Source: a virus
Strand: one strand, 5' to 3'
IMG/VR virus record: IMGVR_UViG_3300020392_000011
Coordinates: 4,634 to 68,633 of that record
DNA: 64,000 bases
Part shown: positions 30,463 through 46,349 of the stretch, one piece after another
How positions within the stretch are numbered: the first letter of the stretch is position 1
Layout: each line of letters starts with the position of its first letter
Translations under genes and position numbers: made by a program
The notes under the pieces: generated by a model
The model's database searches: none
Told to the model about the DNA's origin: nothing
The model's input: the letters and a program-made list of their open reading frames with translations, nothing else

Positions 30463-30496
30463 ATTATACCACGTTTCTAATGCTTTGTACAGTGTT
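30463..30496 (-). promoter_or_regulatory. Antisense copy of the early/middle promoter
   Basis: Minus strand reads AACAC-TGTACA-N17-TATAAT with a TGG extension. Confidence 0.8.
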
Positions 30497-30516
30497 ATTT
30501 GCAAATTAAATAAACC

Positions 30517-30545
30517 TGTACATTGTAACTGAAGTATGGTATAAT
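30517..30545 (+). promoter_or_regulatory. Early/middle promoter for gp55
   Basis: TGTACA-N17-TATAAT. Confidence 0.8.
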
Positions 30546-34067: not shown

Positions 34068-34143
34068 GGGGCTGTAGCTCAGTTGGGAGAGCATCTGCTT
34101 TGCACGCAGAGGGTCGTAAGTTCGAATCTTATCAGCTCCACCA
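34068..34143 (+). tRNA. tRNA-Ala (anticodon UGC)
   Basis: 76-nt cloverleaf; GGGGCTG/CAGCTCC acceptor stem with the G3:U70 Ala identity pair; TTCGAAT T-loop; encoded CCA. Confidence 0.97.
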
Positions 34144-39925: not shown

Positions 39926-40853
39926 ATTTCTATGGGTTGAAAAATACCGACCAAAAACAATAGATGACTGTGTATTACCTGCACATATAAAAACTACCTT
40001 TAAGCAAATTGTTAACGGAGGTGAATTACACAATATGCTTTTGACTGGCACAGCTGGTCTTGGTAAAACGACAGTTGCTAAAGCTTTATGTAACGAATTA
40101 GATTTAGATTATTTACTTATAAATGGTTCAGAAGAGTCAGGTATCGATACACTCAGAAATAAGATTAAGCAATTCGCTTCGTCGGTCTCACTCCAAGGAG
40201 GCTACAAAGTAGTTATCCTCGACGAAGCGGATTACCTTAATCCACAATCTACTCAGCCAGCACTTCGTGGTTTTATCGAAGAGTTTAGCGGTAATTGTAG
40301 ATTTATATTAACATGCAATTTTAAGAATAGAATTATTGAGCCATTGCATTCAAGATGCTCAGTAGTAGAATTCAACATTCCTAAAAAAGAATCAGAACGC
40401 TTATGCTCTGTTATGATGGCTCGTTTAATGCTTATATTAGATGACGAAGGAATTAAATACGAAACTAAAGTATTGGCTGAGCTTATAATGAAGTATATGC
40501 CAGACTGGCGTAGAGTAATAAACGAATTGCAAAGATATAGCACATCGGGTGTTATAGATTCTGGTATATTAGTTTCATTAAGCGATATATCAGTAAATGA
40601 ATTAATGAGTTCTTTAAAAATAAAGGACTTTAAAAAGATGCGACAATGGGTTGCTGATAATATAGACTCAGATCCTGCATCTTTATTTAGAAAATTATAC
40701 GATAATATGAATGAGTATGTTGTGCCAGAAAGCATACCGCAAATGGTTCTTATACTTGCAGATTATCAGTACAAAAATAGCTTTGTTTCAGACCATGAGC
40801 TCAATTTAGTAGCTTGTTGTACTGAACTTATGGCAGGAGTTAAATTCAAATGA
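39918..40853 (+). CDS. gp44: Clamp loader large subunit
   Basis: LWVEKYRP, GTAGLGKTT, ILDEAD, SRC. Confidence 0.96.
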   Translation: MNEFLWVEKYRPKTIDDCVLPAHIKTTFKQIVNGGELHNMLLTGTAGLGKTTVAKALCNELDLDYLLINGSEESGIDTLRNKIKQFASSVSLQGGYKVVILDEADYLNPQSTQPALRGFIEEFSGNCRFILTCNFKNRIIEPLHSRCSVVEFNIPKKESERLCSVMMARLMLILDDEGIKYETKVLAELIMKYMPDWRRVINELQRYSTSGVIDSGILVSLSDISVNELMSSLKIKDFKKMRQWVADNIDSDPASLFRKLYDNMNEYVVPESIPQMVLILADYQYKNSFVSDHELNLVACCTELMAGVKFK

Positions 40854-41020
40854 TAATAAAATCAAATGACGAAATGTTAAAAAGAGAAATTGCAGAAATG
40901 CAAAAACAAGTACACGATTTACAAATGAGAGTGATGGAATTGCAAGACGAAAACATTGAACTCAAAAGGAAAGCTAAATTATTAGATGATTTAGTATATG
41001 ATAGGTTAATGACAAAATGA
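40850..41020 (+). CDS. Small coiled-coil hypothetical protein (56 aa)
   Basis: Overlapping ATGA junctions with gp44 and gp62; not in the ORF track. Confidence 0.6.
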   Translation: MIIKSNDEMLKREIAEMQKQVHDLQMRVMELQDENIELKRKAKLLDDLVYDRLMTK

Positions 41021-41400
41021 ATCCATTTGACTTTTTAAAATCTATTAACACAACCAAAAAGAATATTATGGTTGATGATATTATAGAAAAAGAGTATAAT
41101 GCATTTATCATTAATAGAGGACTATCGTTTTTCCCAGATACTATTCTTTACGCTAACGAGATGAATCTAAACCATCATCTAGATAGTCGGCTTCAATATG
41201 ATTTTCTTATAAATATAATTAAGAAAAAGAAAAGGTTTACAAAGTGGGTAAAGCCACAAGAGATAGCCAATCTTGAAATAGTAAAAGAATACTATGGATA
41301 TAGCGATGAAAAAGCTAAATCCGTATTGTCATTACTTAATAATGAACAAATAGAAGAATTGAACAGAAGGATTTATAAAGGTGGAAAACGAAAGTATTGA
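41017..41400 (+). CDS. gp62: Clamp loader small subunit
   Basis: MNPFDFLKSIN, FIINRGLS, ANEMN, KEYYGYS. Confidence 0.93.
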   Translation: MNPFDFLKSINTTKKNIMVDDIIEKEYNAFIINRGLSFFPDTILYANEMNLNHHLDSRLQYDFLINIIKKKKRFTKWVKPQEIANLEIVKEYYGYSDEKAKSVLSLLNNEQIEELNRRIYKGGKRKY

Positions 41401-41818
41401 AGTAAAGAATTGGTCTCCAGCAGATATGTTGGAAGTATCATTAAACGAACCTGACGATTTTCTTAAAATCAGAGAGACTCTAACACGTATCGGAGTCGCA
41501 TCAAGAAAAGATCAGAAATTATACCAGTCATGTCACATATTGCACAAACAAGGAAGATATTTCATTGTGCATTTTAAAGAATTATTCTTATTAGATGGTA
41601 AGCCATCTAATCTTGTGGAAAATGACCTAGAAAGAAGGAACACAATTGCTACACTTCTTGCTGACTGGGGCTTAGTAAATATGGTAAACTCAGAGACTGC
41701 AAAAAGTCTAGCACCATTGAGGCAGATAAAGGTAATACCTTTTAAAGAAAAAGCCCATTGGGAACTGTGTCCTAAATACAACATAGGAAACAGTAATGCT
41801 AAAGAAGATAACACATAA
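41381..41818 (+). CDS. regA: Translational repressor RegA
   Basis: DDFLKIRETLTRIG, QSCHILHKQGRYFIVHFKELF. Confidence 0.97.
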   Translation: MENESIEVKNWSPADMLEVSLNEPDDFLKIRETLTRIGVASRKDQKLYQSCHILHKQGRYFIVHFKELFLLDGKPSNLVENDLERRNTIATLLADWGLVNMVNSETAKSLAPLRQIKVIPFKEKAHWELCPKYNIGNSNAKEDNT

Positions 41819-41897
41819 AATATTTAACAAATTTCATAAGCTTATGAAATCTGGGCGAATACCAAAAGTTTGTAAAAAATTTGGTGTCGCAAAATAA
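41796..41897 (+). CDS. Small basic hypothetical peptide (33 aa)
   Basis: AGGA RBS; MLKKITHKIFNKFHKLMKSGR...; fills the gap after regA. Confidence 0.4.
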   Translation: MLKKITHKIFNKFHKLMKSGRIPKVCKKFGVAK

Positions 41898-41942
41898 TAC
41901 AGGTTTTTATTGACTTACAAATTAAACTTGTATAAATAATAT

Positions 41943-42003
41943 TAGGATGTCGCATTGGGCGAGTCCTATTAACCTTGCTAAATTATAGGAGGAAAGCAAA
42001 ATG
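41943..42003 (+). promoter_or_regulatory. ROSE-like RNA thermometer in the hsp20 leader
   Basis: 5' hairpin TAGGA..TCGC/GCGA..TCCTA, then CCTTGCT pairing with the SD AGGAGG with a bulged G. Confidence 0.65.
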
Positions 42004-42456
42004 GTAAGAACTAACTTGAACGTACCTCGTTCACTATTCGTAGGATTCGAAGGTTTATTCGATGAACTAGAAAGAATCCACACTTCAGCTCGATCCGGTT
42101 CGGATAATTATCCACCTCACAATATTGTGAAGATCGATGATGAGAAATTCTTAATTGAGATGGCAATTGCCGGATTCACAAAAGAAGAAATCGCACTAGA
42201 AGTAAAAGATGGAATTCTAAAGATTACGGGTAACCGTGAATCTGATGATAGGGAATATGCGTGGAAAGGTATTTCATCCCGCAAATTTGAGAAGAGCTTC
42301 CGTCTCTCAGAATTTGTCGTAATAGATGGTGCCGACTTAGAGAATGGAATACTCGTGGTGTATGCCAGAGTTGAACTTCCAGAAGAGAGGCGTCCTAGGA
42401 AGATCGAAATAGGGTCTGCTGGGGCATCAAAGAAAAAATCTTTTTTGAAAGGCTAG
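42001..42456 (+). CDS. hsp20: Small heat-shock protein (IbpA/Hsp20)
   Basis: NYPPHNI, IEMAIAGF, GISSRKF, ADLENGIL. Confidence 0.95.
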   Translation: MVRTNLNVPRSLFVGFEGLFDELERIHTSARSGSDNYPPHNIVKIDDEKFLIEMAIAGFTKEEIALEVKDGILKITGNRESDDREYAWKGISSRKFEKSFRLSEFVVIDGADLENGILVVYARVELPEERRPRKIEIGSAGASKKKSFLKG

Positions 42457-42508
42457 TATCAGCGAACACTCAGTAGATTAGTATAAACTTTTTTACTGGA
42501 GAACAGCT

Positions 42509-42649
42509 ATGAAACATATTATATTGTTTATGAATAAGTATGAAGATTTAGCAGAGACCCTTGGTGGATTAATTATAATGGCATTGACGGCAGGAGCAAT
42601 TTTAGGATTAGCACCAATGTTAATGTGGTTAGAAATCAATTCCAGGTAA
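42509..42649 (+). CDS. Small membrane protein (46 aa)
   Basis: GGAG RBS; hydrophobic LGGLIIMALTAGAILGLAPMLMWL; followed by a terminator; not in the ORF track. Confidence 0.65.
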   Translation: MKHIILFMNKYEDLAETLGGLIIMALTAGAILGLAPMLMWLEINSR

Positions 42650-42664
42650 CTCTACTATTCATGC

Positions 42665-42692
42665 GGGGGTAAGAAATTACCCCCATTTTTTT
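42665..42692 (+). terminator. Rho-independent terminator
   Basis: GGGGGTAA-GAAA-TTACCCCC followed by ATTTTTTT. Confidence 0.9.
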
Positions 42693-42703
42693 GCATAAAA
42701 CAC

Positions 42704-42731
42704 TGTACATTTTAGTTGAACCTGGTATAAT
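42704..42731 (+). promoter_or_regulatory. Early/middle promoter driving the putative ncRNA
   Basis: TGTACA-N16-TATAAT with TGG extension. Confidence 0.75.
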
Positions 42732-42738
42732 AGTCTAT

Positions 42739-43024
42739 AGGAATCGAGGAAAAGCTGTAGATGGATGGTTGATGTGAAGCTTTATCGAAACTCCTGGTTA
42801 TAACTGATTTAAAATCAATTAAGACGTGAAATATTGTGTTGAGGTTATAACAGAAGGAAACAATGAAGTATCTGAAATTCTTGGAGTGAGTTGGGACGAT
42901 ATGGAAAACGAGATTCTTTATGGTGGCTGCTATCCACCTAAAAAAATTCAGGTAAGGCCTGACCTAGAAGGACACGCTGTAGAAAATGGGATTCCCAGAA
43001 TTGAAACACAAAAAACTCCACTTA
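42739..43024 (+). ncRNA. Putative structured non-coding RNA (~290 nt)
   Basis: Own promoter, several nested stems, no ORF with both a good RBS and real length. Confidence 0.5.
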
Positions 43025-43028
43025 ACAC

Positions 43029-43057
43029 TGTACATTATGACTGAACTATGGTATAAT
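43029..43057 (+). promoter_or_regulatory. Early/middle promoter for gp43
   Basis: TGTACA-N17-TATAAT. Confidence 0.8.
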
Positions 43058-43083
43058 AGATACTATTACAAGGTGACACTTAT

Positions 43084-45606
43084 ATGATGAAATTTTACAC
43101 AAATGTATCGCGATATGGAAACATGTTGCTATATCGTGGTTATGAGAATGGAAAAAAAATCCAACAAAAAGTAAAATACGCACCTACACTTTATGTATCA
43201 ACGAATCGACCTACTAATTGGAAAGCCTTAGACGGAACTCCAGTTGGTGAAGTTAATTTTGATTCTATGCGTGAAGCTAATGAATGGGTATCGCGTAACA
43301 AACATGTAGCTGGTAGAGATATCTTTGGTAACACTCGTTACATATCAGCATTTATTAACGAACAATTTCCTGGACATATTGAGTTTAATCGTAACTTAAT
43401 TAATGTAACTACAATCGATATCGAGGTTCAATCTGATGATGGTTTTCCAGAGCCAGAGCGTGCCGATAATGTAATTACAGCTATTACAATTAAAAATAAT
43501 ATTGACAACACATACTATGTCTGGGGCCTAGGCAGTTACGATACTGAAAAATCGCTAATGAAAACACACAGAGTTGTGTATAAAAAGTTTGATACAGAAG
43601 CAAACTTACTTATTGATTTTGTAACTCATTGGTCACAACCTTCACAATGTCCAGATGTAATTACTGGTTGGAACACAAGGTTCTTCGATATACCATACTT
43701 AATTAATCGTATATCTAAACTAATTGGTGAAGTATATGCTAAAAGATTATCGCCATGGGGAATGGTCGAACGAAGAGAAATAACCAAACAGGGTAGAACA
43801 CAAGTTGCCTATGAATTAAAAGGTATTTCTATGATGGATTATATGGAACTATTCATTAAGTTTGGTTACTCATACGGTGCACAAGAATCATACAGATTAG
43901 ATCATATTGCCAATGTTGTTCTTGGTGAGAAAAAGTTATCTTACGAAGAGCATGGTAGTTTATTCTCACTTTATAAAAACGACTTCCAAAAGTTTATTGA
44001 TTATAATATTAAAGACGTAGAGTTAGTTGATAGACTAGAAGATAAAATGGGATTAATTACTTTGGCCATGACTATCGCTTATAAAGGCGGTGTCAATTAC
44101 CAAGACACTTTTGGTACTACTGCAATCTGGGATACTATTATTTACCGTAAGTTGCACGAAAATAAAATCGTAGTACCATTCTCAGAAGATAAAACCAAAT
44201 CCAGTTATCCTGGCGGATATGTAAAAGATCCACATGTCGGGATACATGATAATGTGGTCAGCTTCGACCTCAACTCGCTATATCCGTCTATTATTATGCA
44301 ATATAATATGTCACCTGAAACGATTGCGGAAGGCGAAGTCACCAAAGTTGATATCGAAGCTGTACTCACACATTCACAAAAACTCGACAATAAAGGCAAA
44401 GCACTTGCCGCCAACGGCCAATACTTTAATACAAATAAAGTTGGTATTGTTCCAATGATTATTGACGAGATGTATAACGAAAGAGTTGGTATAAAACAAC
44501 AAATGATTACCGCTCAAAAAGCTAAAGAAAAGGTAGATAAAAATGATAAACAAGAACTATATAAAATTGAAAGAGATATATCAATCGCTGAGAATAGACA
44601 AATGGCCATTAAGATTCTTCTTAACTCTCTTTATGGCGCTATGGGCAACAAATACTTTCGTTTCTTCGACCAACGAATTGCAGAAGCCATTACTCTTACC
44701 GGACAGCTTACTATACGATGGGCCGAATATGCACTCAATGCCCATCTCAACAAAGCATTGCGACATAATAATACATACAAAGACTTCGTACTGGCCATCG
44801 ACACTGACAGTTTGTATGTTTGCCTAGATGATATTGTTAAAGCTATTAAACCAGATAACCCTATTGATTTTTTAGATAAAGTCTGTGAGAAAGATTTAGA
44901 GCCAGTATTATCTAAATCATATGACCAATTATACAATATTCTTGGCGGTATAGATAATAGGATGGTTATGAAACGAGAAGCTATTGCGGATCGTGGTCTC
45001 TGGACAGCTAAGAAAAGATATATTCTAAATGTACACGATAACGAAGGCGTAAGATATAAAACACCTAAACTAAAAATTATGGGTATTGAAGCTATTAAAT
45101 CTTCGACACCAGAGCCATGTCGTGATGCACTAAAAGAAATATTTAAAGTTATTATTTCTGGCTCAGAAGCAGAAACACAAAAAGCTATTAATCAATTTAA
45201 AGAACACTTTAATACTTTACCTCCACATAAGATTGCATTCCCACGAGGTATATCAAAAGTAAGTACATTTAAAGGCACTGATGGTATCTATAAAAAAGGT
45301 ACACCAATACATGTACGAGGTGCATTATTGTATAATAGCCAAATAAATGACTTATCATTAAATAAAAAGTACACAAAAATACAAAATGGCGAAAAGATTA
45401 AATTCGTCTATTTGAAAAAACCTAATCGTATACATGAAAATGTAATTGCATTCCCTGATTACTTACCAGAAGAATTTAACTTACATAAGTATATTGATTA
45501 TGACTTACAGTTCCAAAAAACATTTCTGGATCCTATCGATCCGATACTATCAGCAGTAGGCTGGTCATCGGAAGAGATATCTACCCTGGAGGATTTCTTT
45601 GGATAA
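43084..45606 (+). CDS. gp43: Family B DNA polymerase
   Basis: DIE exonuclease motif, [31 protein letters not shown]; C-terminal clamp peptide TLEDFFG. Confidence 0.98.
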
Positions 45607-45610
45607 ACAC

Positions 45611-45639
45611 TGTACATTTAAACTTGAATATGGTATAAT
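45611..45639 (+). promoter_or_regulatory. Early/middle promoter
   Basis: TGTACA-N17-TATAAT. Confidence 0.8.
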
Positions 45640-45660
45640 AGTACCTACGGAGAAACAAAA

Positions 45661-45951
45661 ATGAAATTAGTAAGATTAGTGTCCGGCGAAGAAATTGTCG
45701 GAGATGTAGTAGAAAATAAAGATGGTAGTTATACTATCAGCAATGCATTTAATTTATTGCCAGGCGGTGAAGGTAAAATACAATTCATTCCATTTATGGC
45801 ATACACAGAAGCACATGCTGGTGTAACACTTAAAGCTGAACATGTTTTATTTGCAGTTAAACCAATTGCACAATTAGTAGAACAAATCAGTAATATAAAA
45901 AGACAATTAGATAGCGGAATTGTAGTACCAGAACAGAAGATAGTAACATGA
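45661..45951 (+). CDS. Conserved hypothetical protein (Sm-like)
   Basis: KLVRLVSGEEIVG...FIPFMAY; GGAG RBS. Confidence 0.65.
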   Translation: MKLVRLVSGEEIVGDVVENKDGSYTISNAFNLLPGGEGKIQFIPFMAYTEAHAGVTLKAEHVLFAVKPIAQLVEQISNIKRQLDSGIVVPEQKIVT

Positions 45952-46349
45952 GTATAGATTGGGTAGAAGATATCCATAAGATGCAAACAAAATATAAGAC
46001 TCGTGAATGGGTTGAAAATAATCCAGACAAGTTAAGAGCCTTTTTAGAGTTTAGAATAGACTTCCTAAGGGAAGAACTAGATGAAACAGAAGCTGCATTA
46101 TGTAATATGGATTCAGAAGAAATCGTTGATGGTCTTATAGATCTATGCGTTGTTGCAATTGGAACACTCGATGCATTTGACATCGATCCATATACAGCAT
46201 GGGACGAAGTACTTAAAGCAAATATGAAAAAAGAAGTTGGCAAAAAATCAACAAGGCCTAATCCATTAGGTGTACCTGATTTAGTAAAGCCAGATGACTG
46301 GGAGGCTCCATCACACAAAGGTAATTATGGTAAGTTTGACAATATTTGA
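45948..46349 (+). CDS. All-alpha NTP pyrophosphohydrolase (MazG/PRA-PH-like)
   Basis: FLREELDE, EIVDGLIDL, WDEVLKANMKK, DLVKPDDWEAP. Confidence 0.8.
   Translation: MSIDWVEDIHKMQTKYKTREWVENNPDKLRAFLEFRIDFLREELDETEAALCNMDSEEIVDGLIDLCVVAIGTLDAFDIDPYTAWDEVLKANMKKEVGKKSTRPNPLGVPDLVKPDDWEAPSHKGNYGKFDNI

Follow-up and report, generated by a model that had tools for sequence, protein, structure and literature searches.

The window analysed here is a 64,000-nt stretch of the 68.6-kb record of an uncultured virus (estimated 38% complete), a T4-like phage whose gp43 DNA polymerase is 51.8% identical to that of its closest named relative, Phage C48C1 (Kyanoviridae). The order regA ... hsp20 ... polymerase is the same in that phage as in the window. 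The features around the gp43 locus, all on the + strand, are as follows.

41381-41818, + strand: regA
42001-42456, + strand: hsp20
42509-42649, + strand: 46-aa hydrophobic ORF between hsp20 and the terminator
42665-42692, + strand: terminator-like hairpin and T run (8-bp stem at 42665-42684, 5 G-C pairs)
42703-42731, + strand: promoter P1 (CTGTACA, 16-nt spacer, TGGTATAAT)
42737-43016, + strand: proposed RNA gene (covariance-model match 42735-43016, 251.8 bits)
42826-43044, + strand: 72-aa ORF with a GTG start on the proposed RNA gene, spurious
42864, + strand: ATG of an 8-codon ORF present in the window copy
43028-43057, + strand: promoter P2, near-duplicate of promoter P1, serving gp43 and forming the right-hand insertion boundary
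43084-45606, + strand: gp43 DNA polymerase, given as context

The terminator at 42665 and the two promoters of one family (42704-42731 and 43029-43057) between which the first-pass annotation had placed a structured RNA are present. About 290 nt without a convincing gene separate the two promoters. The terminator-like hairpin would end the hsp20/46-aa ORF transcript and, with promoter P1, make up a composite terminator-promoter motif; it is also conserved in gp43 relatives that lack the RNA element. The -10 box of promoter P1 ends 5-7 nt 5′ of the first RNA helix, the first and last paired bases of the RNA being 42739 and 43011. Matches to the promoter family CTGTACA-N17-TATAAT number 12 in the window at ≤1 mismatch, compared to 0.32 expected. 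Sites of this family, in the form CTGTACA-N17-(TGG)TATAAT, include 30463-30545 (a divergent pair), 38515, 45610 and 48210, and its -35 element, which differs from TTGACA, may reflect a polymerase whose specificity is modified or phage-directed. The window copy is the only copy of the element in its own record, and the nearest tRNA, which is also the sole tRNA that ARAGORN reports in the window, lies at 34068-34143.

Two observations concern the upstream genes. The 46-aa hydrophobic ORF (42509-42649) has no Pfam match and is covered by an RNA-library contig. Directly 5′ of the hsp20 start codon, a full-length match to the ROSE_3 RNA thermometer (41941-42006, + strand) falls short of the gathering score (21.8 bits, with 43 required; E 0.38); in the fold of 41935-42010 the flanks of an AGGAGG pair while AGGAGG itself stays in the hairpin loop (z = -1.61), and the segment 41941-42006 may be a heat-sensing leader of the phage hsp20.

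To place the element at this locus, 80 loci encoding gp43 relatives were compared. It is present in only two of them, L001 (97% identical over the region) and L002 (83%), and in six aligned loci (L003, L004, L007, L014, L024 and L041) the terminator is followed by a single promoter and gp43 with nothing between. Because gp43 relatives without the element run from terminator to promoter to gp43, the window is, as judged by alignment, one that carries an ~325-nt insertion (the body plus one promoter copy) between near-identical promoters. The promoter and Shine-Dalgarno site of gp43 are identical to those in relatives without the element. The sequence signals suggest that the element and a promoter arrived together as a cassette, via recombination between promoter copies.

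The RNA family and its comparative fold

Homologues were gathered by exact-pattern scans with invariant stretches, candidates being filtered with nhmmer, and by a covariance model. Collectively, 170 matches came out of these searches, of which 144 are full-length and 86 distinct, and every one lies in a viral contig or in a contig from a marine or other aquatic metagenome; among the metagenome contigs, all but 11 of the 115 pattern hits fit the profile beyond the searched pattern. A scan of prokaryotes, covering one genome for each of 185,579 species with a single exact 18-base pattern that would miss diverged copies, returned three pattern hits and no true copy, and blastn with the window region, L139 and L222 as queries found no match in 50,697 records of named phages. 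A model search of Phage C48C1 and Pelagibacter phage HTVC008M was empty, an outcome that carries no weight by itself. The Rfam scan proposed in the first-pass annotation (Rfam 15, window positions 40000-46000, E up to 10) gave no match overlapping 42700-43024, and the same database searched with five diverse loci at E up to 1 yielded only tRNAs, glutamine riboswitches and chance matches elsewhere. ARAGORN reported no tmRNA in the window, and no description of the RNA was found in the literature searched, a scope that excluded supplementary motif lists.

Several variants and neighbours within the family deserve mention in their own right. L237 (1107-1489, - strand) and L252 hold versions of the RNA with an insertion of roughly 90-120 nt, placed in the P3a loop by a split nhmmer match and by long insert columns in the 88-sequence alignment, and the copy at L171 5667-5890 (- strand) is without model positions ~167-226. 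L139, L306, L266 and L172, which belong to one sub-clade, share a conserved extra segment of ~60 nt between element and terminator that may be a 3′ extension of the RNA. Glutamine riboswitch aptamers scoring above the gathering score lie within a few hundred bases of the element, near gp23, in L091 (10782-10898, - strand; tandem, 62.3 and 57.9 bits) and L222 (3070-3191, - strand; single, 46.9 bits). In L085, a 103-kb viral contig, a 612-aa ORF located 1 kb upstream of the element (144-1982, + strand) reads by eye as a putative membrane sensor fused to a nucleotide cyclase domain.

Double changes preserving four stems were visible already between the window copy and L002. To derive a consensus structure, RNAalifold was applied to a plain MAFFT alignment of 39 copies, which recovered P3, P4, P6 and P8 unaided; helices P1, P2, P5 and P7 were added by reading the alignment. 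Model R1 was built on this basis, and 40 and later 88 copies were aligned to it. In window coordinates, the paired elements are as follows.

42739-42745 with 42912-42918, + strand: helix P1, long-range, closing the 5′ domain
42751-42783 (42751-56 with 42778-83), + strand: P2 hairpin with a conserved 21-nt G/U-rich loop
42797-42851 (42797-805 with 42843-51), + strand: P3, enclosing P3a and the 5′ strand of the pseudoknot
42814-17 with 42827-30, + strand: P3a hairpin with an invariant 9-nt loop
42834-42840 (TTGTGTT) with 43005-43011 (AACACAA), + strand: 7-bp pseudoknot from the P3 internal loop to the 3′ tail
42864-42905 (42868-72 with 42898-902, plus the pair 42864/42905), + strand: P4, enclosing P5 and an invariant UUGGGA
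42876-78 with 42890-92, + strand: P5 hairpin inside P4
42922-42938, + strand: P6 hairpin
42948-42962, + strand: P7 hairpin, an optional module
42987-42997, + strand: P8 hairpin (TGGG / CCCA)

These elements form a 5′ domain, in which helix P1 closes around three arms (P2, P3/P3a and P4/P5), and a 3′ domain of P6, the optional P7, and P8, with long invariant stretches between the helices. Within the 5′ domain, helix P1 shows changes on both sides in all 7 of its pairs (91.5% of cells paired, with 16 unpaired cells at each of three positions) and P2 shows compensatory changes in 6 of 6 pairs, its lower paired fraction of 78.5% arising because one clade is misaligned by one column. Compensatory changes were likewise found in 7 of 9 pairs of P3 (95.5% paired), one of 4 pairs of P3a (96%) and 5 of 5 pairs of P4 (98.4%), and the additional pair 42864/42905 covaries as A-U in 46 sequences and U-A in 41. 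In the 3′ domain, compensatory changes support 3 of 5 pairs in P6 (99.5% paired), 4 of 5 in P7 (100% paired where present) and 3 of 5 in P8 (92.2% paired); one clade, comprising 21 of 88 sequences, has neither P7 nor the stretch behind it. The pseudoknot, absent from the model, was found by a mutual information scan; 99.5% of its cells are paired, compensatory changes occur at 4 of 5 pairs, and up to four pair types are seen per position. Two further pseudoknot candidates, UGGUUG of the P2 loop with CAAUUA, and UCAAU with AUUGA, are each paired in at least 93% of sequences and lie beyond the reach of covariation because they are invariant and mutually exclusive. A third candidate (columns 28-31 with the 3′ tail) was rejected; it competes with the supported pseudoknot and varies less.

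To evaluate the fold as a whole, pairing across the 88-sequence model-fitted alignment was compared with controls in which partners were slid by 1-3 columns. The 55 pairs of the 11 helices were paired in 94.1% of 4713 cells (33.1-48.9% in the controls), compensatory changes occurred at 42 of the 55 pairs (10-14 in the controls), and the covariation score was 0.578 compared to 0.053-0.114 in the controls, a value reached by none of 500 shuffles. Counts on alignments fitted to model R1 lean toward the structure of that model; a structure-blind MAFFT alignment of 39 sequences agreed (89.9% paired versus 30.9-49.5%, and 28 compensatory pairs versus 5-10), and the covariation is therefore not a product of fitting the alignment to the model. 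Furthermore, there are 366 G.U cells and only 47 A.C cells, and thus the folded molecule is the + strand RNA rather than DNA or the opposite strand.

Thermodynamic prediction alone does not reveal this structure. The minimum free energy of 42735-43024 is -59.4 kcal/mol (z = -0.28), with 75 of 200 shuffles folding as well or better; the supported fold of the window copy has -44.5 kcal/mol versus a minimum of -57.4 kcal/mol, a cost of 12.9 kcal/mol, and the single-sequence minimum-energy fold holds only 20 of the 48 comparatively supported pairs. On the evidence of the homologues the structure is real, and it is visible only in comparative data. The earlier description of the region as highly structured stands on comparison of the 88 homologues and fails on thermodynamics. 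All nine stems drawn in the first-pass annotation can be formed by the window copy. Four of them carry compensatory changes, namely AAAGCT/AGCTTT (P2), GTTATAAC/GTTATAAC (P3), GGTGG/CCACC (P6) and TCAGG/CCTGA (P7), whereas five are not kept in homologues: AGGA/TCCT, TCGA/TCGA, the GATT/AATC hairpin, and the outer 12-bp stem of its third domain, which is counted as two failures because its strands fall in P5 and P8. In place of AGGA/TCCT, the 5′ AGGAATC pairs with 42912-42918, 170 nt away, and the five rejected stems are replaced by helix P1, P4, P5, P8 and the pseudoknot. About half of the secondary structure first proposed was wrong.

Transcription signals, genomic neighbours and expression

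In 48 of the 86 distinct copies, a promoter-like site stops no more than 9 nt short of the model start; it is of the TTGACA type in the largest clade and of the CTGTACA type in the window's phage group. Terminator-like hairpins lie ≤110 nt downstream in 29 of the 86 by a strict rule that misses some, and 26 of the 86 copies have both signals; the window copy has the promoter upstream and no terminator behind it. Transfer RNA genes are frequent neighbours, with a same-strand tRNA ≤60 nt away in 28 of the 86 copies. Upstream of the element, tRNA-Asp ends 2 nt away in 16 copies and tRNA-Thr is found in three; downstream, tRNA-Glu starts 8-17 nt away in eight copies and tRNA-Asp is found in two. 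The element adjoins gp23 (major capsid) in L129 and L091, where it is the sole + strand feature among - strand genes. At least 10 different genomic contexts were counted.

Contigs from RNA libraries cover the element. A 291-nt metatranscriptome contig matches 42747-43023 with zero differences (as an assembled contig, it leaves strand, ends and level invisible), and in the same metatranscriptome a separate contig covers 42274-42665, stopping at the terminator. Two other studies hold contigs with variants of the L002/L085 type, and in contigs from four RNA runs the cover of gp43 reaches 43241 and is patchy elsewhere. We take these contigs as a weak hint of expression, as such libraries can hold DNA.

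Interpretation and relation to known phage RNAs

With a probability of about 0.85, we consider 42737-43016 (+ strand) to be the gene for a stable, compact non-coding RNA of ~275 nt, one of a family that no catalogue lists and that occurs in uncultured marine T4-like phages. The core of the first-pass annotation, namely that a phage ncRNA not described before is driven by its own promoter and encodes no credible protein, is supported by strong covariation, by the lack of an Rfam match and by a promoter directly upstream in unrelated contexts; the observation behind it was confirmed in part.

That the element is instead a small protein gene of 72-83 aa, its nucleotide conservation reflecting the protein, is highly improbable. 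Open frames do exist: the 72-aa ORF in the window, frames of 79-83 aa in L002 and L085 (the latter an 83-aa ORF with an ATG start), and 35 protein clusters (53-141 aa) that match an ORF on the element at 55-93% identity, the ORF called on the element in them measuring 74-97 aa. These frames are not conserved, however. Only 10 of 39 distinct copies have ≥60 stop-free codons in any + frame, the L085 frame is open from the homologous start in only 13 of 88 copies, and the middle third of the window copy is in a different frame from L085. The 72-aa frame is disrupted by a +1 shift in L001, and L082 has a +1 shift followed by a stop after ~39 codons (read by eye); several non-triplet indels separate the window copy from L002, in which the ATG of the 8-codon ORF is also lost. 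ORFs on the element have no conserved stop and run on into what follows, be it promoter or tRNA gene, such that the C-terminal tails of several cluster proteins read like a translated tRNA gene, while their N-termini are in shifting frames. Nor is there a coding pattern of substitution. Among nine same-frame copies, variable columns number 6, 10 and 4 at codon positions 1, 2 and 3, without a third-position excess, and the residue is changed in 14 of 16 variable codons, no better than in the other two frames. Furthermore, the window's 72-aa ORF is without a Pfam match, and one clade entirely lacks the most conserved 'peptide' stretch. On this pattern of change among homologues the element is not a protein gene, and its annotation by gene callers as an ~80-aa hypothetical protein is wrong. 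A gene on the minus strand was also considered and rejected: stop-free runs reach 76 codons in some copies and are not kept in two clades, the window has no start-codon ORF >30 aa there, and the G.U counts contradict that strand.

Of the readings that grant the element a non-coding role, a cis-acting 5′ leader (riboswitch, thermometer or translational operator) for the downstream gene, here gp43, is quite unlikely, even though conserved complexity would suit a ligand-binding aptamer and eight copies (those of the window, L001, L002, L082, L288, L284, L159 and L245) have a promoter, no terminator, and genes or another promoter following at once. Against it, the downstream partner varies (gp43, unrelated small ORFs, tRNA-Glu, tRNA-Asp, or a terminator and then nothing), so that the constant position upstream of one kind of gene that marks a riboswitch is not seen; 29 of the 86 copies have a terminator behind them, the element faces the end of the opposite-strand gp23 in L129 and L091, and gp43 retains a promoter and Shine-Dalgarno site of its own. 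It is very unlikely that the searches missed a divergent relationship to an established family (RNase P RNA, tmRNA, 6S, SRP, a group I/II intron fragment, ROOL or GOLLD): tRNA adjacency suits RNase P-like or tRNA-linked RNAs, and some short strings in the element may resemble RNase P and SRP motifs, but Rfam 15 places nothing on the element at permissive thresholds, ARAGORN finds no tmRNA, and T4 rnaC/rnaD fail to match the model. The bounding of the insertion by duplicated promoters and its many genomic places might also suit a DNA-level site (replication origin, recombination, packaging) or the neutral remains of a cassette. We regard this as extremely improbable, as 11 helices are kept by compensatory changes, the G.U excess over A.C makes sense only for + strand RNA, promoter and terminator positions are conserved relative to the element, and an origin would not move among at least 10 contexts. 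An RNA of the origin or a role specific to gp43 is likewise unlikely because the element sits at so many genomic places.

For the non-coding RNA gene that we favour, the sequence signals give a reasonably clear picture of how the RNA would be made. The host RNA polymerase would transcribe the RNA from a sigma-70-type promoter whose -10 box lies a few bases before helix P1, and the 3′ end would be made by a terminator or by tRNA-trimming enzymes, presumably RNase P where a tRNA follows and the 3′ tRNA-trimming enzyme where a tRNA precedes. Because no terminator lies behind the window copy, its RNA may be cut from, or kept as the 5′ part of, a transcript running into gp43. The RNA would act in trans as a folded particle, neither by coding nor by simple antisense pairing. 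If it is functional, we would give somewhat less than even odds to its serving early in infection as a scaffold or decoy, bound to a protein or to some component of the machinery of translation or tRNA; some other role might have a modest chance, an RNA-only assembly like ROOL and GOLLD a slightly smaller one, and a ribozyme a smaller one again. On balance, we would guess that the RNA works in trans as a folded particle and is connected with the machinery of translation or tRNA in infected cells. A bolder and doubtful proposal is that of a new self-folding RNA class (a ribozyme, or an RNA-only particle half the size of ROOL/GOLLD) tied to phage tRNA genes, which marine T4-like phages might use as a general means to seize host translation or to weaken defences directed at tRNA.

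The manner of insertion has a counterpart in the PeSLs of T4-type phages, described in the accounts drawn on here as motifs combining a terminator with a promoter, which border small inserts and bring about modular shuffling (PMC4122927; PMC2839356). The window insert is similarly preceded by a terminator and promoter, with a second promoter copy behind it, and these repeated flanks enclose a segment missing in close relatives, as in a PeSL-type cassette. It differs in that the cassettes of those accounts hold small ORFs whereas the insert holds the proposed RNA gene, in its promoter motif (CTGTACA-N16/17-TATAAT), and in that recombination in the window is deduced only. An RNA of this family would ride a promoter-bounded cassette moving between genomic sites.

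Two groups of phage RNAs offer further comparison. ROOL and GOLLD, which we take to be Rfam RF03087 and RF01998, are both larger than the element, ROOL being roughly 580 nt. They are phage- or prophage-encoded RNAs with elaborate pseudoknotted folds, often beside tRNA genes, and GOLLD exceeds 800 nt (as far as described in bioRxiv 10.1101/2024.12.08.627333). The element resembles them in being phage-borne and pseudoknotted, with 28 of 86 copies beside a same-strand tRNA; it differs in having only ~275 nt, in its carriers, which are marine T4-like phages, and in lacking any sequence or structure match to them in the Rfam searches. T4 rnaC/rnaD (species 1 and 2 stable RNAs) are, like the element, small stable RNAs of a T4-type phage, and are placed head to tail immediately behind a tRNA gene, with rnaD starting 2 nt after tRNA-Arg, much as 16 copies of the element follow tRNA-Asp at a distance of 2 nt (the window copy is not tRNA-adjacent). 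At 139 and 119 nt they differ in length, and homology was rejected because the model, run on the T4 region without filters, gave nothing better than a match at E 0.36, which lies elsewhere. We rate the RNA family as new and its kind, a folded phage RNA beside tRNA genes, as one with precedents.

RNAs with so much conserved tertiary structure are rare and have usually proved to be ribozymes, riboswitches or ribonucleoprotein cores. In the element, 11 helices covary, a pseudoknot is present and the junctions are long and invariant; it is also abundant in ocean viromes, the two collections scanned having yielded 170 copies, and its carriers are uncultured. Its small size puts in vitro transcription, chemical probing and cryo-EM within reach, and a possible function in common with ROOL, GOLLD and T4 rnaC/rnaD, as small tRNA-adjacent phage RNAs, is therefore directly testable.
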